NCBI GenBank assembly: GCA_964016885.1
Contig: OZ024764.1
Span: 26,474,001-26,538,000 of the forward strand
Direction: 5' to 3'
DNA: 64,000 nt
From: Eledone cirrhosa
Lineage: Eukaryota
Part shown: one piece after another, positions 1,082-56,190 of the stretch
Position numbering within the stretch: the first letter of the stretch is position 1
Layout: each line of letters starts with the position of its first letter
The notes under the pieces: generated by a model
Databases searched by the model: none
The model's input: the letters and a program-made list of their open reading frames with translations, nothing else
What the model was told of the DNA's origin: nothing
Translations under genes and position numbers: made by a program

Positions 1082-1335
1082 ATGCAAATAGACTTAGACT
1101 GGAAAACATTCAGACAGAGAAGAATGGATAATGAGCGTCGTAAGAGAAATTGGCCAACAATTAATATTAATGGAAATGTAGAAGGATTTCATATTAGTGA
1201 TATGAATGTTTCGTGTGATCACTGTGGAGCTTTGAAATTTAGAAATGAAAATTGTAACTGTTGTAATAAAGGAAAGGTTGTGTTGCCACCATTGCAAATA
1301 TACCCTGAGAGACTGAGAAATCTCTTTGAAAGAGA
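1082..1335 (+). pseudogene. Truncated Helitron RepHel N-terminal Cys-rich segment
   Basis: MNVSCDHCGALKFRNENCNCCNKGKVVLPPLQIYPERLRNLF is the Helitron CxxC...CC..GKV.LP.L motif; it is cut off at the fold-back. Confidence 0.8.
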
Positions 1336-1358
1336 TTTCTCAGTCTCTCAGGGTATAT
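1298..1358. repeat. Perfect 30-bp-arm fold-back palindrome (also ~3879-3939, 18497-18557, 21198-21258)
   Basis: atataccctgagagactgagaaatctcttt-g-aaagagatttctcagtctctcagggtatat; the copy at ~18.5 kb has two mismatches. Confidence 0.95.
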
Positions 1359-2066
1359 ATTCCCGCCGTTGAAATAAAAATTTTAATAGAAAAACGGCGG
1401 GAATATATGTTACAACCCAATCTATATATATTTAGGTTGTAACATATATTCCCGCCGTTGAAATAAAAATTTTAATAGAAAAACGGCGGGAATATATGTT
1501 ACAGCCCAATCTATATATATTTGGGTTTTAACATATATTCCCGCCGTTGAAATAAACATTTTAATAGAAAAACGGCGGGAATATATGTTACAACCCAATC
1601 TACATATATTTGGGTTGTAACATATATTCCCACCGTTGAAATAAAAATTTTAATAGAAAAACGGCGGGAATATATGTTACAACCCAATCTACATATATTT
1701 GGGTTGTAACATATATTCCCGCCGTTGAAATAAAAATTTTAACATAAAAACGGCGGGAATATATATTACAACCCAAACATATATAGGTTGGGTTGTAACA
1801 TATATTCCCGCCGTTTTTCTATTAAAATTTTTATTTCAACGGCGGGAATATATGTTACAACCCCAAAATATGTAGCTTGGATTGTAACATATATTCCCGC
1901 CGTTTTTCTATTAAAATTTTTATTTCAACGGCGGGAATATATGTTACAACTCAAATATATATAGATTGGGTTGTAACATATATTCCCGCCGTTTTTCTAT
2001 TAAAATTTTTATTTCACCGGCAGGAATATGTTACAACCCAAATATATATATATTGAGTTGTAACAT
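1355..2066. repeat. 89-bp alternating-inverted-repeat array, 8 units
   Basis: tcccgccgtt (one copy tcccaccgtt) recurs at 1361, 1450, 1539, 1628, 1717, 1806, 1895, 1984; unit = 28-bp R' + 22-nt loop + 28-bp R + 11-nt loop; 5 units in one loop orientation, then 3 reversed. Confidence 0.95.
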
Positions 2067-2147
2067 GGGTTACATATAAGGTCTCATTTTTTTTCTTTTC
2101 TTTCTTTCAGTTTTCTTCTTATCTCTAGATATAAATATATATACATA

Positions 2148-2256
2148 AGGTAACTTGGTAGAATTGTTAGAACATCAGATAGAATTCTTTGCAGTATTTT
2201 TCCAGTTCTTTACTCTGAGTTCAACTTTACCTTTCTTCCATTCAGTGTCGATAAGT
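2148..2256 (+). mobile_element. Degenerate tRNA-derived SINE fragment (present in each 2.6-kb unit)
   Basis: ttggtagaattgttagaac...ctgagttcaactttacctttcttccattcagtgtcgataag is a decayed plus-strand version of the SINE at 6737-6905 (A-box/B-box remnants). Confidence 0.5.
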
Positions 2257-3662
2257 CTTGAATATGTCTAACGTAGCAATAACTGGAGCTACTTAACCAA
2301 GTTTTCCCAACCTAGTCGATGTCACCTACTGGTTGGCGATTTAAACTGTTGGCTGCGACAATGACCAACTAATCAGTCAGATTCGAACTCACTATGTCTG
2401 GCATATATTTTATATTTTATATTTGAATGAAGTTCTGTAAGTAACCTGGTGGCTTAGATGGCAATACTGCTCGAATAGATGGCTTCTAGTTCATTCCCTA
2501 TCCAGGATTGTAGAATTAATTTTATTTAGTTATTATTTAATCAATTGTTTTAACAAACAAATTATATCTATAAAACGCCAAATATAGTGAGTTCAAATCT
2601 GACTGACATGCATGGTATATATTTATGTTTCATTATACAGCGACACAATACACAGGAACTTATAAAGATATGTATATATTGTCCAGGAGTTTCGAGTTTA
2701 GTGGGAATTGGTACAACTCTCAGTTGGAGCTAGTCCCTGCAAGATCAGCATAAATAATGTTATACCTTTTCATGAAATCTTGCACACCCGATATTTTATA
2801 CATGATTATTTAAAGGTGAACAAAAACCAAAGAACATTGTGCAGCATTCTCAACCTTTCTACCCATGTCGATCTCTTGAAATAGTTTTTATGTCTCAGGG
2901 AAGCCCTGCATAAAATATACTTTTTCTATCTCTAGAGCAGTGGTTCCCAAATCGTGTGCTGAGAGATGAAACAAGATGAGCTGCAAAAGACTAAGATTAA
3001 GTTTTATGATGTGAAAAATATAAAACTGAAATTTCATATAAAAGTTCAAATATAGCTACAGCCACAAACCTAGGCTCCACACCCCGCAATGCAGAGGATA
3101 GTAAGATAGTACCAAGGCCTGACTCACCTCTTCCACTCCATTGAGACCTCTGCCATACTTGGTCCCTGTACTGCTGATTTCCTCCATAAAGTCGGGAGGA
3201 AAGACGACAGGAGCTTCATGAGGAGGGGCGACTATTGTAGCAGGTGTCTCTGGCCTTGCTCTGAGGTAACGCTTTTACGTTTCTTCCACAGGTTGCGGCT
3301 GAGGGACCACTTAGACTGGGGTGAAGTGTCTGTCCCTCCCCCGACTTCTTACTTCTTTTTTTTTTCTCATTTTCATTTTCTTTTCTCTTCTTGCTTATCT
3401 CTGCTATACCACGGCATCAAAAACATATATGATATATGTATGTATGGTATAGGTGTATTTATATTTAGGATAGTTATCAAAGGTAAATAGACTGGTTGGA
3501 GCAATAACAGTCTTGTTTATGTATGTACACACACATATATATATATATATATATATCTGTTTGTTCTTGTATTTCCATAGAAAAGGTAAAGAAAAGAAGA
3601 ATGCTCTATGTATTGTACAGAGCTATTTAATTACATAATAAACAACAGAATATAATTATTCC

Positions 3663-3916
3663 ATGCAAATAGACTTAGACTGGAAAACATTCAGACAGAG
3701 AAGAATGGATAATGAGCGTCGTAAGAGAAATTGGCCAACAATTAATATTAATGGAAATGTAGAAGGATTTCATATTAGTGATATGAATGTTTCGTGTGAT
3801 CACTGTGGAGCTTTGAAATTTAGAAATGAAAATTGTAACTGTTGTAATAAAGGAAAGGTTGTGTTGCCACCATTGCAAATATACCCTGAGAGACTGAGAA
3901 ATCTCTTTGAAAGAGA
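3663..3916 (+). pseudogene. Truncated Helitron RepHel N-terminal segment
   Basis: Same translation as the 1082 copy. Confidence 0.8.
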
Positions 3917-3935: not shown

Positions 3936-4647
3936 ATATATTCCCGCCGTTGAAATAAAAATTTTAATAGAAAAACGGCGGGAATATATGTTACAACCCA
4001 ATCTATATATATTTAGGTTGTAACATATATTCCCGCCGTTGAAATAAAAATTTTAATAGAAAAACGGCGGGAATATATGTTACAGCCCAATCTATATATA
4101 TTTGGGTTTTAACATATATTCCCGCCGTTGAAATAAACATTTTAATAGAAAAACGGCGGGAATATATGTTACAACCCAATCTACATATATTTGGGTTGTA
4201 ACATATATTCCCGCCGTTGAAATAAAAATTTTAATAGAAAAACGGCGGGAATATATGTTACAACCCAATCTACATATATTTGGGTTGTAACATATATTCC
4301 CGCCGTTGAAATAAAAATTTTAACATAAAAACGGCGGGAATATATATTACAACCCAAACATATATAGGTTGGGTTGTAACATATATTCCCGCCGTTTTTC
4401 TATTAAAATTTTTATTTCAACGGCGGGAATATATGTTACAACCCCAAAATATGTAGCTTGGATTGTAACATATATTTCCGCCGTTTTTCTATTAAAATTT
4501 TTATTTCAACGGCGGGAATATATGTTACAACTCAAATATATATAGATTGGGTTGTAACATATATTCCCGCCGTTTTTCTATTAAAATTTTTATTTCACCG
4601 GCAGGAATATGTTACAACCCAAATATATATATATTGAGTTGTAACAT
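3936..4647. repeat. 89-bp alternating-inverted-repeat array, 8 units
   Basis: Copy of 1355-2066 at offset 2581. Confidence 0.95.
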
Positions 4648-6151: not shown

Positions 6152-6736
6152 TGTTCTTGTATTTCCATAGAAAAGGTAAAGAAAAGAAGAATGCTCTATG
6201 TATTGTACAGAGCTATTTAATTACATAATAAACAACAGAATATAATTATTCCATGCAAATAGACTTAGAATGGAAAACATTCAGACAGAGAAGAATGGAT
6301 AATGAGCGTCGTAAGAGAAATTGGCCAACAATTAATATTAATGGAAATGTAGAAGAATTTCATATTAGTGATATGAATGTTTCGTGTGATCACTGTGGAG
6401 CTTTGAAATTTAGAAATGAAAATTGTAACTGTTGTAATAAAGGAAAGGTAGTGTTGCCACCATTGCAAATATACCCTGAGAGACTGAGAAATCTCTTTGA
6501 AAGAGGCCAGGAAGCAGTTGATTTCACAGAAACATCTGCAATTAAAACTACATTTATTTCACTTCATTTGGTGTTACCACCCGGCAGAGGCCCGTATAGA
6601 TTTCATATTCAGGGTCAAACATATCAATACACACCCATCTCTGTAACCTGCAGAAAATACACCACAATATGGCCAGTTATATATTATTGATGGGAACGAA
6701 GGTGTGTAGCACAGATTGGAAGTACAACCAAATAAT

Positions 6737-14838: not shown

Positions 14839-16044
14839 TTATTACTGTAATATAAAGTAGAAACCCTTTATTTAAACAAAGCTGCGATGCAGCGATGATC
14901 AAAACAAACTTCAAATAACATGTGTATACGAAGTGTATCTGGAAGCTTGGTCGTATTATATGACTTTCAAATTGACCCCTATTATATTCAAATTATCCCC
15001 TGTGGGGCGTGCACCCCACGTTGAGAATCCCTCATAAATAAATATATGTGAGTGTGTTGCTATGACTGCTATTTCTAGCAGGTTTACTGCAGTCCTGTAG
15101 ACGCACAACAAAAACCGGAAGTGGCAGCCATTAAAAAACTTTGGCTTAAAATCAGGCAAAAGTTTTTTAACAATTTGCCAAGAAAGATAACTCTTGTCTT
15201 ACTTAATCGCAAAAATCGAGGCAAAAATTTTGTGGGTGTACAGTTTGTTTGGTGTATTTGACTGCTATTTCTAGCATGTATGGACACTTTAGAAATAGCA
15301 GCGAAAAACGGAAAACAGCAGAAAGAAGGACACACACCTATATATATATATATACCAGCTATACACTCACCCATACATATATATATATACCAGCTATACA
15401 CACACCCATATCTACGTATAGGTGTGTGTGCGCGCGTGTATGTATATATAAATATATATATTTAAATGTATATATCTGTGCATATATATATGTATATATA
15501 TATACGTGTGTGTCCTTCTTTCTTATGTTTCCCGTGTTTCGCTGCTATTTCTAAAGTGTCCATATATGCTAGAAATAGCAGTCAAATACACCAAACAAAC
15601 TGCACACCCGCAACATTTTTTGCCTCGATTTTTGCGATTAAGTAAGACAAGAGTTATCTTTCTTGGCAAATTGTTAAAAAACTTTTGCCTGATTTTAAGC
15701 CAAAGTTTTTTAATGGCTTCCACTTCCGGTTTTTGTTGTGCGTCTACAGGACTGCAGTAAACCTGCTAGAAATAGCAGTCATAGCAACACACTCACATAT
15801 ATTTATTTATGAGGGATTCTCAACGTGGGGTGCACGCCCCACAGGGGATAATTTGAATATAATAGGGGTCAATTTGAAAGTCATATAATACGACCCAACT
15901 CCCTGTTACACTTCGTATACACATGTTATCGTGTATCTGGCAGCACCTGCGAGAAGTTTGTTTACATTTTGGGGTTTGCTTTGATGATCGCTGCATCTCA
16001 GCTTTGTTTAAATAAAGGGTTTCTACTTTATATTACAGTAATAA
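14839..16044. repeat. Fold-back structure: ~500-bp inverted arms around a ~170-bp TA-rich spacer
   Basis: Identical spurious ORF on both strands apart from one residue (14956-15159 minus, 15685-15888 plus); arms include a hAT-MITE end (gttgagaatccct). Confidence 0.9.
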
Positions 16045-18117
16045 CACTTTTACAAGACTCGGATTGTTTTTATATTAAAGGGGGACATGTTTTTTAAACT
16101 CTGAACTCAGCATCTTTCTGTTGTTCTCCGGGATTCTAGCAAAGTATAAAAAAAAATATATATATATAGATATATATATATATATCTGGCAGTCAACCTC
16201 AGACTCGAAAAAGCCGCCGCTAATCGTGATCGTTGGGGTTATAATTCGACTAAAGTGCTTCCACTGGGCACCATTAGCTGGTTGTGATCATTGGAGAATT
16301 CTTTCTGCGCTGAAAGAGCCTAGGACTAAAAGATATATATATAGATGTCGAAACGGCAGTAGCACAGCCGTTGGGGTCCTGAATATTTTCACATCTATAT
16401 ATGTGTGTGTATTCTGCGACATTTATAATTACATAAGCAAGCATATTTGAATAACAAAATTTGAGGTTTAAATACTTTATTTTTTACCAATAACATAGAG
16501 AAAGGCATGAACAACACCACATGTTAATTACTTTAATATTGAAAGTAGGCTTATAAATATTAAAAAAGCAGATGTTTGTATCTTTCATGGTGGTCTGGTG
16601 GGTGATACCAGAGATGGTGGTAGTCATGGTTTCGGTTTCAATCCTGGTCATGGGTTACATATAAGGTCTCATTTTTCTTTCTTTCAGTTTTCTTCTTATC
16701 TCTAGATATAAATATATATACATAAGGTAATTTGGTAGAATTGTTAGAACATCAGATAGAATTCTTTGCAGTATTTTTCCAGTTCTTTACTCTGAGTTCA
16801 ACTTTACCTTTCTTCCATTCGGTGTCGATAAGTCTTGAATATGTCTAACGTAGCAATAACTGGAGCTACTTAACCAAGTTTTCCCAACCTAGTCGATGTC
16901 ACCTACTGGTTGGCGATTTAAACTGTTGGCTGGGACAATGACCAACTAATCAGTCAGATTCCAACTCACTATGTCTGGCATATATTTTATATTTTATATT
17001 TGAATGAAGTTCTGTAAGTAACCTGGTGGCTTAGATGGCAATACTGCTCGAATAGATGGCTTCTATTATGAAGTTATAAGTTCATTCCCTATCCAGGATT
17101 GTAGAATTAATTTTATTTAGTTATTATTTAATCAATTGTTTTAACAAACAAATTATATCTATAAAACGCCAAATATAGTGAGTTCAAATCTGACTGACAT
17201 GCATGGTATATATTTATGTTTCATTATACAGCGACACAATACACAGGAACTTATAAAGATATGTATATATTGTCCAGGAGTTTCGAGTTTAGTGGGAATT
17301 GGTACAACTCTCAATTGGAGCTAGTCCCTGCAAGATCAGCATAAATAATGTTATACCTTTTCATGAAATCTTGCACACCCGATATTTTATACATGATTAT
17401 TTAAAGGTGAACAAAAACCAAAGAACATTGTGCAGCATTTCTCAACCTTTCTACCCATGTCGATCTCTTGAAATAGTTTTTATGTCTCAGGGAAGCCCTG
17501 CATAAAATATACTTTTTCTATCTCTAGAGCAGTGGTTCCCAAATCGTGTGCTGCGAGATGAAACAAGATGAGCTGCAAAAGACTAAGATTAAGTTTTAAG
17601 ATGTGAAAAATATAAAACTGAAATTTCATATAAAAGTTCAAATATAGCTACAGCCACAAACCTAGGCTCCACACCCCGCAATGCAGAGGATAGTAAGATA
17701 GTACCAAGGCCTGACTCACCTCTTCCACTCCATTGAGACCTCTGCCATACTTGGTCCCTGTACTGCTGATTTCCTCCATAAAGTCGGGAGGAAAGACAAC
17801 AGGAGCCTCATGAGGAGGGGCAACTATTGTAGCAGGTGTCTCTGGCCTTGTTCCGAGGTAACGCTTTTACGTTTCTTCCACAGGTTGCGGCTGAGGGACC
17901 ACTTAGACTGGGGTGAAGTGTCTGTCCCTCCCCCGACTTCTTACTTCTTTTTTTTTCTCATTTTCATTTTCTTTTCTCTTCTTGCTTATCTCTGCTATAC
18001 CACGGCATCAAAAACATATATAATATGTGTATGTATGGTATAGGTGTATTTATATTTAGGATAGTTATCAAAGGTAAATAGACTGGTTGGAGCAATAACA
18101 GTCTTGTTTATGTATAT

Positions 18118-18552: not shown

Positions 18553-19354
18553 CATATATTCCCGCCGGTGAAATAAAAATTTTAATAGAAAAACGGCGGG
18601 AATATATGTTACAACCCAACCTACATATTTTTGGGTTGTAACATATATTCCCGCCGTTGAAATAAATATTTTAATAGAAAAACGGCGGGAATATATGTTA
18701 CAACCCAATCTATATATATTTGAGTTGTAACATATATTCCCGCCGTTGAAATAAAAATTTTAATAGAAAAACGGCGGGAATATATGTTACAACGCAATCT
18801 ATATATATTTGGGTTGTAACATATATTCCCGCCGTTGAAATAAAAATTTTAATAGAAAAACGGCGGGAATATATGTTACAACCCAACCTATATATGTTTG
18901 GGTTGTAATATATATTCCCGCCGTTTTTCTGTTAAAATTTTTATTTCAACGGCGGGAATATATGTTACAACCCAAATATATGTAGATTGGGTTGTAACAT
19001 ATATTCCCGCCGTTTTTCTATTAAAATTTTTATTTCGACGGCGGGAATATATGTTACAACCCAAATATATATAGATTGCGTTGTAACATATATTCCCGCC
19101 GTTTTTCTATTAAAATTTTTATTTCAACGGCGGGAATATATGTTACAACCCAAATATATGTAGATTGGATTGTAACATATATTCCCGCCGTTTTTCTATT
19201 AAAATTTTTATTTCAACGGCGGGAATATATGTTACAACTCAAATATATATAGATTGGGTTGTAACATTTATTCCCGCCGTTTTTCTATTAAAATTTTTAT
19301 TTCACCGGCGGGAATATGTTACAACCCAAATATATATATATTGAGTTGTAACAT
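18553..19354. repeat. 89-bp alternating-inverted-repeat array, 9 units (4+5)
   Basis: Unit starts at 18560, 18649, 18738, 18827, 18916, 19005, 19094, 19183, 19272. Confidence 0.95.
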
Positions 19355-21254: not shown

Positions 21255-22055
21255 ATATATTCCCGCCGGTGAAATAAAAATTTTAATAGAAAAACGGCGG
21301 GAATATATGTTACAACCCAACCTACATATTTTTGGGCTGTAACATATATTCCCGCCGTTGAAATAAATATTTTAATAGAAAAACGGCGGGAATATATGTT
21401 ACAACCCAATCTATATATATTTGAGTTGTAACATATATTCCCGCCGTTGAAATAAAAATTTTAATAGAAAAACGGCGGGAATATATGTTACAACGCAATC
21501 TATATATATTTGGGTTGTAACATATATTCCCGCCGTTGAAATAAAAATTTTAATAGAAAAACGGCGGGAATATATGTTACAACCCAACCTACATATGTTT
21601 GGGTTGTAATATATATTCCCGCCGTTTTTCTGTTAAAATTTTTATTTCAACGGCGGGAATATATGTTACAACCCAAATATATTTAGATTGGGTTGTAACA
21701 TATATTCCCGCCGTTTTTCTATTAAAATTTTTATTTCGACGGCGGGAATATATGTTACAACCCAAATATATATAGATTGCGTTGTAACATATATTCCCGC
21801 CGTTTTTCTATTAAAATTTTTATTTCAACGGCGGGAATATATGTTACAACCCAAATATATGTACATTGGATTGTAACATATATTCCCGCCGTTTTTCTAT
21901 TCAAATTTTTATTTCAACGGCGGGAATATATGTTACAACTCAAATATATATAGATTGGGTTGTAACATATATTCCCGCCGTTTTTCTATTAAAATTTTTA
22001 TTTCACCGGCGGGAATATGTTACAACCCAAATATATATATATTGAGTTGTAACAT
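21255..22055. repeat. 89-bp alternating-inverted-repeat array, 9 units (4+5)
   Basis: Copy of 18553-19354 at offset 2701. Confidence 0.95.
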
Positions 22056-38558: not shown

Positions 38559-41500
38559 ATTTATTAGCCACAGGGGCAGAGATGTCCATAACATTACATG
38601 ACAGAATTATTAGCCACAGGGGCAGAGATTTCCATAACATTACATGTCAGAATTATTAGCCACAGGGGCAGAGATGTCCATAACATTACATGTCAGAATT
38701 ATTAGCCACAGGGGCAGAGATGTCCATAACATTACATGACAGAATTATTAGCCACAGGGGCAGAGATGACCATAACATTACATGACAATTATTAGCCACA
38801 GGGGCAGATATGTCAATAACATTACATGACAGAGTTTCATCTTGCGCTCTCTCTCTCTCGTTTCATCTCGCTCTCCCTCTCTCTCGTTTCATCTCTGTCT
38901 TCCTCTCTCTCGTTTCATCTCGCTCTCTCTCTCTCTCGTTTCATCTCTGTCTTCCTCTCTCTCGTTCCATCTCTCTCTTCCTCTCTCTCTTCCTCTCTTT
39001 CGTTTCATCTCTATCTCCCTTCTTTCATCTGTCTCTCTCTCTGTCGTTTCATCTCGCGCTCTCTCTCTCTCGTTTCATCTTGCGCTCTCTCTCTCTCGTT
39101 TCGTCTTGCTCTCTCTCTCTCTCGTTTCATCTCTGTCTTCCTCTCTCTCGTTCCATCTCTCTATTCCTCTCTCTCGTTCCATCTCTCTCATCCTCTCTCT
39201 CGTTTCATCTCTATCTCCCTCCTTTCATCTGTCTCTCTCTCTGTCGTTTCATCTCGCGCTCTCTCTCTCTCGTTTCATCTTGCGCTCTCTCTCTCTCGTT
39301 TCATCTCGTTCTCTCTCTCGTTTCATCTCTGTCTTCCTCTCTCTCGTTCCATCTCTCTCTTCCTCTCTCTCGTTCCATCTCTCTCTTCCTCTCTCTCGTT
39401 TCATCTCTATCTCCCTTCTTTCATCTGTCTCGCTCTCTGTCGTTTCATCTCGCGCTCTCTCTCTCTCGTTTCATGTCGCGCTCTCTCTCTCTCGTTTCAT
39501 CTCGCTCTCTCTCTCTCGTTTCATCTCTGTCTTCCTCTCTCTCGTGCCATCTCTCTCTTCCTCTCTCTCTTCCTCTCTCTCGTTTCATCTCTATCTCCCT
39601 TGTTTCATCTCTCTCTCGCTCTCTCGTTTCATCTCTCTCTCCCTCTCGTTTCATCTCGCTCTCTCTCTCCTGTTTCATCTCGCTCTCTCTCTCTCGTTTC
39701 ATCTCTGTCTTCCTCTCTCTCGTTCCATCTCTGTCTTCCTCTCTCTCGTTCCATCTCTCGCTTCCTCTCTCTCGTTTCATCTCGCTCTCCCTCGTTTCAT
39801 CTCTCTCTCGCTCTCTCGTTTCATCTCTCTCTCCCTCTCATTTCATCTCGCTCTCTCTCTCCTGTTTCATCTGGCTCTCTCTCTCTCCTGTTTCATCTCG
39901 CTCTCTACTCTCGTTTCCTCTCTCTCTCTTGTTTCATCTCTCTCTCCCTCCCGTTTCATCTCGCTCTCTCTCTCTCATTTCATCTCGCTCTCTCTCTCTC
40001 GTTTCATCTCGCTCTCCCTCTCTCGTTTCATCCCGCTCTCACTCTCTCATTTCTTCTCGCTCTCTCTCTCTTGTTTCAACACTCTAATCCCTCACTTGTT
40101 TACTATCTCTCAGAATTATTAGCCACAGGGGCAGAGATGACCATAACATTACATGTCAGAATTATTAGCCACAAGGGCAGAGATGTCCATAACATTACAT
40201 GACAGAATTATTAGCCACAGGGGCAGAGATGACCATAACATTACATGACAATTATTAGCCACAGGGGCAGATATGTCAATAACATTACATGACAGAGTTT
40301 CATCTCGCGCTCTCTCTCTCTCGTTTCATCTTGCGCTCTCTCTCTCTCTCGTTTCATCTTGCTCTCTCTCTCGTTTCATCTCTGTCTTCCTCTCTCTCGT
40401 TCCATCTCTCTCTTCCTCTCTCTCGTTCCATCTCTCTCATCCTCTCTCTCGTTTCATCTCTATCTCCCTCCTTTCATCTGTCACTCTCTCTGTCGTTTCA
40501 TCTCGCGCTCTCTCTCTCTCGTTTCATCTCGCGCTCTCTCTGTCTCGTTTCATCTCGCTCTCTCTCTCTCTCGTTTCATCTCTGTCTTCCTCTCTCTCGT
40601 TCCATCTCTCTCTTCCTCTCTCTCGTTCCATCTCTCTCTTCCTCTCTCTCGTTTCATCTCTATCTCCCTCGTTTCATCTCTCTCTCGCTCTCTCGTTTCA
40701 TCTCTCTCTCCCGCTCGTTTCTTTTCGCTCTCTCTCCCCTGTTTCATCTCGCTCTCTACTCTCGTTTCCTCTCTCTCATTTCCTCTCTCTCTCGTTTCCT
40801 CTCTGTCTCGTTTCATCTCGCTCTCTCTCTTTCTCGTTTGATCTCGCTCTCACTCTCTCGTTTCATCTCGCTTCTCTCACTCTCTTGTTTCATCTCGCTC
40901 TCTCTCTCTCTTCCTCTCTCTCTCTTGTTTCAACACTCTAATCCCTCACTTGTTTTATCTCTCTCTAATCCCTCACTTGGTTCATCTCTCTCAGAATTAT
41001 TAGCCACAGGGGCAGAGATGTCCATAACATTACATGTCAGAATTATTAGCCACAGGGCAGAGATGTCCATAACATTACATGTCAGAATTATTAGCCACTG
41101 GGGCAGAGATGTCCATAACATTACATGTCAGAATTATTAGCCACAGGGGTAGAGATGTCCATAACATTACGTGTCAGAATTATTAGCCACAGGGGCAGAG
41201 ATGTCCATAACATTACATGACAGAATTATTAGCCACAGGGGCAGTGATGTCCATAACATTACATGACAATTAGTAGCCCCAAGGGCAGATATGTCCATAA
41301 CATTACATGACAGAGTTCCATCTCGCGCTCTCTCTCTTCCTCTCTCTCGTTTCATCTCGCTCTCTCTCTCTCTCGTTTCATCTCGCTCTCTCGTTTCATC
41401 TCGCTCTCTCGTTTCATCTCGCTCTCTCTCGTTTCATCTCTGTCTTCCTCTCTCTCGTTCCATCTCTCTCTTCCTCTCTCTCGTTTCATTTCTATCTCCC

Positions 41501-53314: not shown

Positions 53315-53667
53315 ATATTCAAATTATCCCCTGTGGGGCGTGCACCCCACGTTGAGAATACCTCATAAATAAATATATGTGAGTGTGTTTCTATGACTGC
53401 TATTTCTAGCAGGTTTACTGCAGTCCTGTAGACGCACAACAAAAACCGGAAGTGGCAGCCATTAAAAAACTTTGGCTTAAAATCAGGCAAAAGTTTTTTA
53501 ACAATTTGCCAAGAAAGATAACTCTTGTCTTACTTAATCGCAAAAATCGAGGCAAAAATTTTGCGGGTGTGCAGTTTGTTTGGTGTATTTGACTGCTATT
53601 TCTAGCATGTATGGACACTTTAGAAATAGCAGCGAAAAACGGAAAACAGCAGAAAGAAGGACACACA

Positions 53668-53701
<34 letters not shown>

Positions 53702-54360
53702 AGCTATACACTCACCCATACATATATATATATATATACCAGCTATACACACACCCATATCTACGTATAGGTGTGTGTGCGCGCGTGTATGTATATATAA
53801 ATATATATATTTAAATGTATATATCTGTGCATATATATATGTATATATGTATATATATATATATATATACAGATACATAATTATATATATATATATACGT
53901 GTGTGACCTTCTTTCTTATGTTTCCCGTGTTTTGCTGCTATTTCTAAAGTGTCCATATATGCTAGAAATAGCAGTCAAATACACCAAACAAACTGCACAC
54001 CCGCAACATTTTTGCCTCGATTTTTGCGATTAAGTAAGACAAGAGTTATCTTTCTTGGCAAATTGTTAAAAAACTTTTGCCTGATTTTAAGCCAAAGTTT
54101 TTTAATGGCTGCCACTTCCGGTTTTTGTTGTGCGTCTACAGGACTGCAGTAAACCTGCTAGAAATAGCAGTCATAGCAACACACTCACATATATTTATTT
54201 ATGAGGGATTCTCAACGTGGGGTGCACGCCCCACAGGGGATAATTTGAATATAATAGGGGTCAATTTGAAAGTCATATAATACGACCCAACTCCCTGTTA
54301 CACTTCGTATACACATGTTATCGTGTATCTGGCAGCACCTGCGAGAAGTTTGTTTACATT
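53315..54360. repeat. Fold-back structure (copy of 14984-15970, left arm truncated)
   Basis: Inverted arms ~53315-53670 and ~53900-54260 around a TA-rich spacer. Confidence 0.9.
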
Positions 54361-54385
54361 AATAAAAACGATGATTCGTTGTCTT

Positions 54386-54719
54386 CAGTAGTTCCAAACC
54401 TTTTTTGCTCCATGCCCCACCTCAACGTTTAAAAATTAGGTTTATGTTCCCCTTTAATATAGAAATAAACCGAGTCTTGTAAAAGTGTTACTACTGTAAT
54501 ATAAAGTAGAAATGCTTTAATTAAACAAAGCTACGATGCCGCGATGATCAAAACAAACTTCAAAATATAAACAAACTTCTCGTAGCTGCTGCCAGATACA
54601 CGATAACATGTGAACAAAGTGTAACTGGAAGTTTGGTCGTATTATATCACTTTCTAATTGGCCCCTATTAAATTCAAATTGCCCCCTGTGGGGCGTGTAC
54701 CCTTCGTTGAGAATCCCTG
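54386..54719 (+). mobile_element. Near-complete ~330-bp hAT-type MITE
   Basis: Imperfect TIRs cagtagttccaaac ... gttgagaatccctg (rc cagggattctcaac); no clear TSD. Confidence 0.55.
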
Positions 54720-55436
54720 ATATATAAATATACATAAGTGTGTTGTTATGACTGCTATTTCTAGTAGGTTTCTGGCTGTCCTGTAGACGCACAACAAAAA
54801 CCGGAAGTGGCAGCCATTAAAAAACTTCGGCTTAAAATCAGCCAAAAGATTTTCAATAATAGTAAAATTTTATTTTTGACAAGGACGATAACTTTTGTCT
54901 TACTTAATCGCAAAAATCGAGGCAAAAATTTTGCGGGTGTCCAGTTAACACGCTAAAATAAACCTGCTAGAAATAGCAGTCATAGCCACTCACATATATT
55001 TATATATCATATATATATATATATATATATATATCAGCCAAACACACACACTTATATATGTACGTGTGTGTGTGTTGACCGCTATATATATATATAGCAG
55101 CCAAACACATACACAGACACACATATATATATATATACATGTGTGTGTCCTCCTCTCGTCTATGGCTGTTATTTTTACATTGTCCTTTTTGTTATTTTTC
55201 TCGGGATTTGCCCGGATTCGAACATGCGACCACCTATTTACAATATAGAATCTTTACAGCTTTACTGACTTTTAAGTAATCCAAGTTGTAACCCCGGATT
55301 TAGGGGTGTTTAATTTATTTTGAAGTATTTTATTATTGGTCTTAGTTAGACGATCGTCCAAGACCATGCTGGGGCATATATATATATATGTATATATATG
55401 TGTGTGTGTGTGTGTATGCTGGGGCATATATATATA

Positions 55437-55496
<60 letters not shown>

Positions 55497-56190
55497 CTGG
55501 GGCATATATATATATGTGTGTGTGTGTATATATATATATGTGTGTGTGTGTGTGTCCTTTCTGTTATTCGCTGCTATTTCTAAAGTGTCCATATATATAT
55601 CATATATATATATATATGATATATAAATATATGTAAGTGAGTTGCTATGACTGCTATTTCTAGCAGGTTTATTTTTAGCGTGTAAACTGCACACCCTCAA
55701 AATTTTTGCCTCGATTTTTGCGATTAAGTAAGACAAAAGTTATCGTCCTTGTCAAAAATAAAATTTTACTATTATTGAAAATCTTTTGGCTGATTTTAAG
55801 CCAAAGTTTTTTAATGGCTGCCACTTCCGGTTTTTGTTGTGCGTCTACAGGACTGCAGTAAACCTGCTAGAAATAGCAGTCATAGCAACACACTCACATA
55901 TATTTATTTATGAGGGATTCTCAACGTGGGGTGCACGCCCCACAGGGGATAATTTGAATATAATAGGGGTCAATTTGAAAGTCATATAATACGACCCAAC
56001 TCCCTGTTACACTTCGTATACACATGTTATCGTGTATCTGGCAGCACCTGCGAGAAGTTTGTTTACATTTTGGGGTTTGCTTTGATGATCGCTGCATCGC
56101 AGCTTTGTTTAAATAAAGGGTTTCTACTTTATATTACAGTAATAACACTTTTACAAGACTCGGATTGTTTTTATATTAAAGGGGACATGT
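54430..56190. repeat. Second, longer fold-back structure absent from the first macro-unit
   Basis: Inverted arms ~54430-55000 and ~55620-56190 (ORFs 54654-54845 minus and 55786-55989 plus are homologous). Confidence 0.85.

Follow-up and report, generated by a model that had tools for sequence, protein, structure and literature searches.

MADE1, the 80-bp MITE of human Hsmar1 (PMC9062482), is a non-autonomous derivative of a mariner transposon, and the birth of MITEs through internal deletion has been described (PMC3814204). Tandem arrays of full-length MITEs are known from Acropora corals, where replication slippage has been invoked for the CMITEs (PMC2872659), and a fold-back model has been put forward for the Angel MITE by Izsvak et al. 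(summarised in section 6 of the review PMC12628747). In Atlantic cod, tandem palindromic runs of a hAT-MITE are found at inversion breakpoints (10.1101/2025.01.09.631634). Template switching between inverted repeats homogenises their arms and inverts the spacers (PMC8604942), polymerase theta produces insertions, flanked by microhomology, that are templated by snap-back or from a distant site (PMC7454005), and tandem duplications carrying insertions at their junctions depend on the same polymerase (PMC7368036). The repeat annotation of Octopus vulgaris reports Tc1-Mariner, MITE and Helitron families and, in the portion considered here, not the array of Eledone described below (PMC13282606). 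Our search of the literature, with Dfam and Repbase outside its scope, returned no description of the MITE family in question or of a palindromic array of whole mariner MITEs at a duplication junction; the family may already be catalogued in repeat libraries such as these two.

The window (the whole stretch of 64,000 nucleotides from Eledone cirrhosa that was analysed) contains four arrays of an 89-bp unit, none of which is assigned a strand. Array 1 (1355..2066) was recovered by TRF with a period of 89 and 8.0 copies. The original prediction described a 28-bp element, R, strictly alternating with its reverse complement R' and separated by two loops, X of 22 nt and Y of 11 nt; TRF confirms the period, and our parsing the alternation and the loop lengths. 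The loops had furthermore been described as fixed, which did not hold, marked variants being present in X as well as in Y. The predicted switch of the loops to their complements midway through the array, making the whole a palindrome, was likewise seen, with a self reverse-complement identity of 92% over positions 53-712 of the 712-bp array 1. One copy of R lies at 1393..1420 (forward strand), and R has 60 matches in the window at up to 3 mismatches, where shuffled sequences (n=100) lead one to expect 0.00. A complete 78-bp monomer occupies 1432..1509 (forward strand; TIR at 1432-1459, spacer X at 1460-1481, TIR at 1482-1509) and is followed by one copy of Y at 1510..1520 (forward strand). The array comprises seven whole MITEs, a partial MITE and a TIR stub at its ends, and one orientation switch; the 11-nt spacers between the MITEs are derived from (TA)n, the final one being a pure AT run, and the first and last R' are both truncated at the central AT core. 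Arrays 2 (3936..4647; TRF 8.0 copies), 3 (18553..19354; 9.0 copies) and 4 (21255..22055; 9.0 copies) have the same junctions as array 1, and the centre of array 3 lies in the opposite orientation. Raw reads of run X10 cover 30 of the 30 bins of window positions 1100-2300, and array 1 is thus unlikely to be an assembly artefact, even if no single listed piece crosses it; 97 reads of the same run carry an uninterrupted allele at position 1334.

Mariner transposases are recognised by a Mos1-type HTH, a DD34D catalytic triad and motifs such as WVPHEL and YSPDL-like sequences. One locus fetched for the dispersed TIR, L073, turned out to hold a full-length mariner with TIRs like R, and a DNA search of the genome, in which 40 of 2680 candidates were scored, added further copies. 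Three such copies were translated: L073 (1,483 bp, TA/TA flanks), which carries an insertion matching a very common genomic repeat, L095 (1,272 bp, TA/TA flanks) and L094 (1,572 bp, AT/TA flanks). The protein of L073, translated through its stops (written as X), matches the Pfam families HTH_48 (1.5e-18) and Transposase_1 (1.6e-18), and L095 retains the motifs WVPHEL and GDEKW, with 34 residues separating the second from the third catalytic Asp. The six TIRs of the three copies differ from R by 1-4 mismatches, those of L073 by only 1-2. The parent thus combines a DD34D transposase with Mos1-type HTH, a length of about 1.3 kb, TIRs of about 28 bp and TA flanks, and all three translated copies contain stops or frameshifts. 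On these sequence grounds, R is the 28-bp TIR of a DD34D mariner present in the Eledone cirrhosa genome. An earlier candidate reading of R as a recombinase site, with an 11+6+11 layout that we take to resemble dif, was abandoned after R had been recognised as the TIR of a mariner.

The original prediction left it to a genome search to tell whether R also occurs in monomers or solely in arrays at Helitron junctions. Searching the genome with 24 nt of R gives 939 exact matches, and 8 of the 100 that were listed first fall outside the array clusters; every one of these 8 is a single R'-spacer-R element of about 80 bp in TA-rich surroundings, the second arm of which is a one-base TIR variant also found in the parent. 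The parent-type variant, searched as a 25-nt piece, has at least 102 exact matches, and the 100 listed span C1-C28 and a scaffold. Fifty loci fetched for those 102 matches were examined for paired TIRs together with the 8 monomers above, yielding 50 distinct paired-TIR elements, all of which (50/50) measure 74-81 bp. Of the 50, 37 are bordered by TA left and right and 49 by TA at one end or both, as read from the occupied sites. Eight matches with a single TIR were excluded from this count. Five of them (L044, L052, L068, L077 and L088) represent this same short element, its second TIR altered by a small indel, while L075 and L060 hold only parts of an element. In the eighth, L069, the element has collapsed to about 40 bp near position 1501, and at 3001-3050 of L035 the TIR is partly repeated, an internal slip at the MITE end.

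The spacers of the dispersed monomers join left and right subterminal sequence of the mariner parent and fall into several subtypes, one of which aligns with the array X with about 5-7 differences over 22-24 positions. The family is short, non-coding, dispersed and marked by a TA target-site duplication, has TIRs in common with an autonomous-type element and derives from it by internal deletion; the array monomer at 1432..1509 has the same build as the 50 dispersed elements of 74-81 bp. R'-X-R is accordingly identified, from this comparison, as a MADE1-like MITE of about 80 bp derived from the resident mariner, and X is best described as a diverged member of one of its spacer subtypes. Dispersed copies sit in TA or (TA)n, and Y is a remnant of the (TA)n target of the MITE. 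The resemblance to MADE1 lies in the size of about 80 bp, in the predominance of the two TIRs and in a parent combining a Mos1-type HTH with a DDD domain; the two belong to unrelated sequence families, however, and the Eledone MITE has several spacer subtypes fusing subterminal bases of the parent. The account of MADE1, in the part that bears on this comparison, does not mention tandem arrays (PMC9062482). Subtypes with different deletion junctions (L043-L092) converge on 74-81 bp, near the 80 bp of MADE1, suggesting that mariner mini-elements are constrained in size.

The right junction of the array occurs 88 times in the genome and is confined to C18, C20 and C25. Both junctions are present in 76 of 77 X-defined array records (the loci are redundant, and the remaining one is cut by the end of the locus). 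The search for R revealed dispersed TA-flanked monomers on the one hand and X arrays sharing a single junction pair on the other. The 56 distinct arrays that could be parsed contain on average 8.66 X loops (at up to 2 mismatches); 88 junction copies would then hold 762 loops, compared with 746 found genome-wide. As the 88 copies account for about all of the X loops, the array arose once, and there appears to be little room, with the first 100 of the 746 places listed, for independent X arrays elsewhere in the genome. No donor array or monomer carrying the exact X was found on C1-C17 at up to 2 mismatches among the first 100 listed of the 746 places. The window is part of a large, multi-contig family of segmental duplications bearing a decayed Helitron (C25:26.47-29.07 Mb, C20:26.8-27.35 Mb and C18:34.9-35.8 Mb, and also C23, C24 and C25:14.7 Mb). 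On C23 this family includes tandem units of about 8.2-8.6 kb. No intact host gene is evident in the window among ORFs of at least 120 aa.

According to the original prediction, all four arrays are fused to a broken Helitron. The Helitron fragment itself stood up to scrutiny: immediately upstream of array 1 lies the 5' part of a decayed Rep/helicase ORF (1082..1334, forward strand; its start transferred as an offset from the 6253 copy), which is cut internally at 1334. This ORF, which adjoins the array, matches Helraiser (PDB 7lcc, residues 115-221) with E = 9.1e-6, and the helicase piece of the fragment gives E = 3.4e-37; a Pfam search returned no match for the ORF fragment. At least 150 near-identical copies of the fragment exist in the genome, and those fetched all share upstream flanks or are joined to a 46-bp satellite. 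An uninterrupted copy at 6253..6690 (forward strand) lacks the array at the equivalent position 6505, and the X loop is absent from 9 of 9 paralogous stretches fetched on C18, C23, C24 and C25 (two of which overlap). The four fusions, in contrast, turned out to be one junction that was duplicated. The left break lies within the decayed ORF, and the link to the Helitron is most simply a single break in this ORF copied by segmental duplication; the 89-bp unit itself derives from the mariner MITE and not from the Helitron. Inverted repeats several hundred bases long, located upstream of the Helitron fragment at 14915-16088 and 53315-56188 of the window, possibly represent another foldback element. 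In some paralogues, the sequence preceding the fragment runs directly into the 46-bp satellite, at differing points (L160 near 3164 and L162 near 8231), pointing to frequent rearrangement in the Helitron-bearing duplication family.

The junctions of the array are those of a filled duplication. A unit of 1,852 bp (2064..3915, forward strand) is tandemly duplicated, with the array and a snap-back filling the junction between its copies. On the left, a hairpin at 1298..1358 (forward strand) has a perfect 29-bp stem and a 3-nt loop: the 24 nt at 1335-1358 exactly repeat those at 1298-1321 in reverse complement, and the last 4 nt of the snap-back (ATAT) are common to the start of the array. On the right, at 2064..2066 (forward strand), the TIR stub that closes the array and the first bases of the duplicated unit have the 3-nt microhomology CAT in common, the uninterrupted form of the unit start being found at 16649-16651. 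In the array-free state the ORF reads through position 6505, and the unit downstream starts at 16649; the array therefore fills the junction of the 1,852-bp duplication. A filler between duplicate copies, a snap-back templated by the flank and microhomology at both ends are the features of templated insertions, and the junction resembles a repair scar. The likeness to end joining by polymerase theta extends to the snap-back, the distant template, the microhomologies at the ends and a duplication within the range of 1 kb-1 Mb (PMC7454005, PMC7368036). Insertions of 5-15 and 2-35 bp, as given in the portion of PMC7454005 considered, are nevertheless far shorter than the 0.5-1.3-kb filler of Eledone, so that the array would have grown after capture or arrived otherwise, and the enzyme proposed here is suggested by geometry.

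Each of the 56 parsed arrays contains 6-15 units and exactly one X switch (56/56), showing that whole units have been gained and lost in place. Their centres are not all in the same orientation: that of array 1 (1727..1837, no strand assigned), once reverse-complemented, agrees with that of array 3 (18837-18947) at all but 1 of 111 positions, as opposed to 14 mismatches in the forward sense, an inversion between a left R' and a right R. Variants within the TIRs are mirrored across the palindrome. Thus 25T occurs 49 times on R in the right half, 17 times on R' in the left half and once otherwise, counts that are not independent given the common ancestry of the paralogues; 24T and 20G are common in the direct sense too. 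Position 13 is A in both TIR orientations of the array and T in 6 of 6 parent TIRs, and none of the 50 dispersed monomers has A at this position on both arms. Mirror-shared variants would fit fold-back and inversion equally. Iterative hairpin template switching, one of the two origins envisaged in the original prediction, is thereby supported in part: the snap-back, the shared derived base, the mirror variants and the inverted centre all speak in its favour, and they do not separate fold-back from inversion. A larger fold-back exists in the same window, where a GA-rich repeat alternating with the 46-bp satellite over about 23 kb (25305-48345) reverses near 38559; the GC skew flips at this point and the arms are about 80-85% matched in 2-kb blocks. 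Given this second fold-back, inversion in mid-array is not peculiar to the MITE array in this region.

In our assessment it is very probable that a MITE of about 78 bp and 11 bases of its TA-rich target became tandemised and, through fold-back copying or inversion, palindromic, were captured once at a duplication junction during microhomology-mediated repair, and were then spread by segmental duplication. The starting point would be a single mariner MITE residing in (TA)n, R having been identified above as its TIR and R'-X-R as a dispersed element. Slippage, unequal exchange or the recopying of one TIR from a hairpin primer could have tandemised it, and template switching between the inverted TIRs would have made the arms alike and turned half of the run around. 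A broken 3' end, having snapped back over the 24 nt seen at the left junction, would have used ATAT to copy or capture the run and CAT to rejoin 1.85 kb upstream, in the manner of Pol-theta or microhomology-mediated break-induced repair, as the geometry suggests. Segmental duplication followed and is on record in the 88 right junctions spread over three contigs, with 6-15 units in the 56 arrays and the centre in both orientations. As no donor array or monomer with the exact X was found, the early steps of tandemisation, palindrome formation and capture could have taken place in more than one order. Two observations sit uneasily with this explanation: X differs at about 5-7 of 22-24 positions from the dispersed spacers although the TIRs differ by only 1-2 from those of L073, and Y consists of an odd number of nucleotides (11), with no clean TA at one of its ends.

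The geometry of the unit invites a different account, in which the MITE with its TA flank was turned once into an 89-nt hairpin or dumbbell and copied iteratively by a repair polymerase into a palindromic concatemer, all in one event. We regard this as unlikely; its stricter form, in which an 89-nt single-stranded dumbbell was rolled out once as a circle, folded back and captured, is in our judgement distinctly unlikely. A single 89-bp unit does form a 28-bp stem on folding (z = -12.3), and folded as a circle it gives a dumbbell of -28.7 kcal/mol, as originally predicted; any TIR element in tandem yields such geometry, however, which is therefore no evidence for a circle. The uniform orientation of the loops within each half and the A at position 13 of both TIR orientations, without counterpart in the parent TIRs, would also suit a circle. 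There are precedents of a kind, an anomalous rolling-circle origin having been proposed for the Bari1 clusters (PMC9659126) and hairpin-capped extrachromosomal intermediates occurring in ODIRA (PMC10766183). Against this, whole-unit change in situ (6-15 units) makes a circle unneeded, homogenised arms are a known outcome of template switching, and the event occurred a single time. Repeated insertion of mariner elements into one (TA)n target, along the lines of the double-insertion model (section 6 of PMC12628747), could have given the first dimer, and the genome does contain unrelated MITE or TIR neighbours with only (TA)n between them (L113 at C2:53365965, L114 at C7:7187193, L075 and L060), which are likely to be repeated insertions into one microsatellite. 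The whole array is very unlikely to have been built in this way. A single X and a single 11-nt Y are common to all of its units, in contrast to the wide variation among dispersed spacers; separate insertions would be neither identical nor in register, and the derived bases common to all units exclude independent insertion of each.

The most far-reaching suggestion of the original prediction, that the arrays could be footprints of a tiny autonomous or Helitron-driven dumbbell or hairpin replicon, the concatemers of which were inserted at Helitron breakpoints, is one to which we attach almost no likelihood. Its appeal lay in the dumbbell geometry, the adjoining Helitron fragment and the near-integer numbers of units. 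The last of these is explained by the position of both array ends, at the AT core of R', and by whole-unit slippage, and the suggestion fails on the remaining evidence: R is a mariner TIR, a single junction pair recurs in 88 copies with no second, independent insertion of a concatemer found in the tally of junctions against X loops, the break lies within a decayed ORF, and array-free paralogues exist on C18, C23, C24 and C25. A retrozyme or another known RNA family had also been considered and was rejected, Rfam giving nothing at the gathering score in the window and no hammerhead core being visible by eye. The ordinary alternative, that of a transposon-derived repeat or satellite expanding in the usual ways, was by contrast largely borne out by the identity of the MITE, the changes in unit number and the single, duplicated break.

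Capture of a tandemised MITE during repair, followed by segmental duplication, can be set beside the described cases. As in Acropora, whole MITEs stand in tandem with near-identical spacers; the CMITEs, however, are related to piggyBac and target TTAA, and the portion of that report considered describes neither a mid-array inversion nor a repair junction (PMC2872659). The Angel model shares with our proposal a nascent strand that folds back at a MITE and recopies it, the stem-loop entering a new site by local homology, and differs in giving two copies, whereas the Eledone arrays hold 6-15 units in two opposed runs (PMC12628747). In Atlantic cod, too, long runs derived from MITEs and containing inverted repeats are found where rearrangements broke the chromosome, but they come from the hAT family, have units of 167-169 bp and lie at chromosomal inversions instead of a 1.85-kb duplication (as far as the preprint was considered; 10.1101/2025.01.09.631634). 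The array thus joins known kinds of sequence, namely the mariner MITE, the tandem MITE array and the repair filler, and does not indicate a novel replicon.

Should the multi-unit array after all have come about in a single step, it would be one of the few fossils that iterative copying of a hairpin or circle has left in repair, and such copying of a hairpin or dumbbell would have given a natural record of hairpin-driven or rolling-circle synthesis in which a whole MITE seeded a satellite. In either case, one genome holds the parent mariner, the MITE subtypes, the tandem array, its junction and 88 paralogues displaying both slippage and a centre flip, which makes Eledone cirrhosa a useful case for the seeding of satellites by MITEs and for rates of template switching between inverted repeats.
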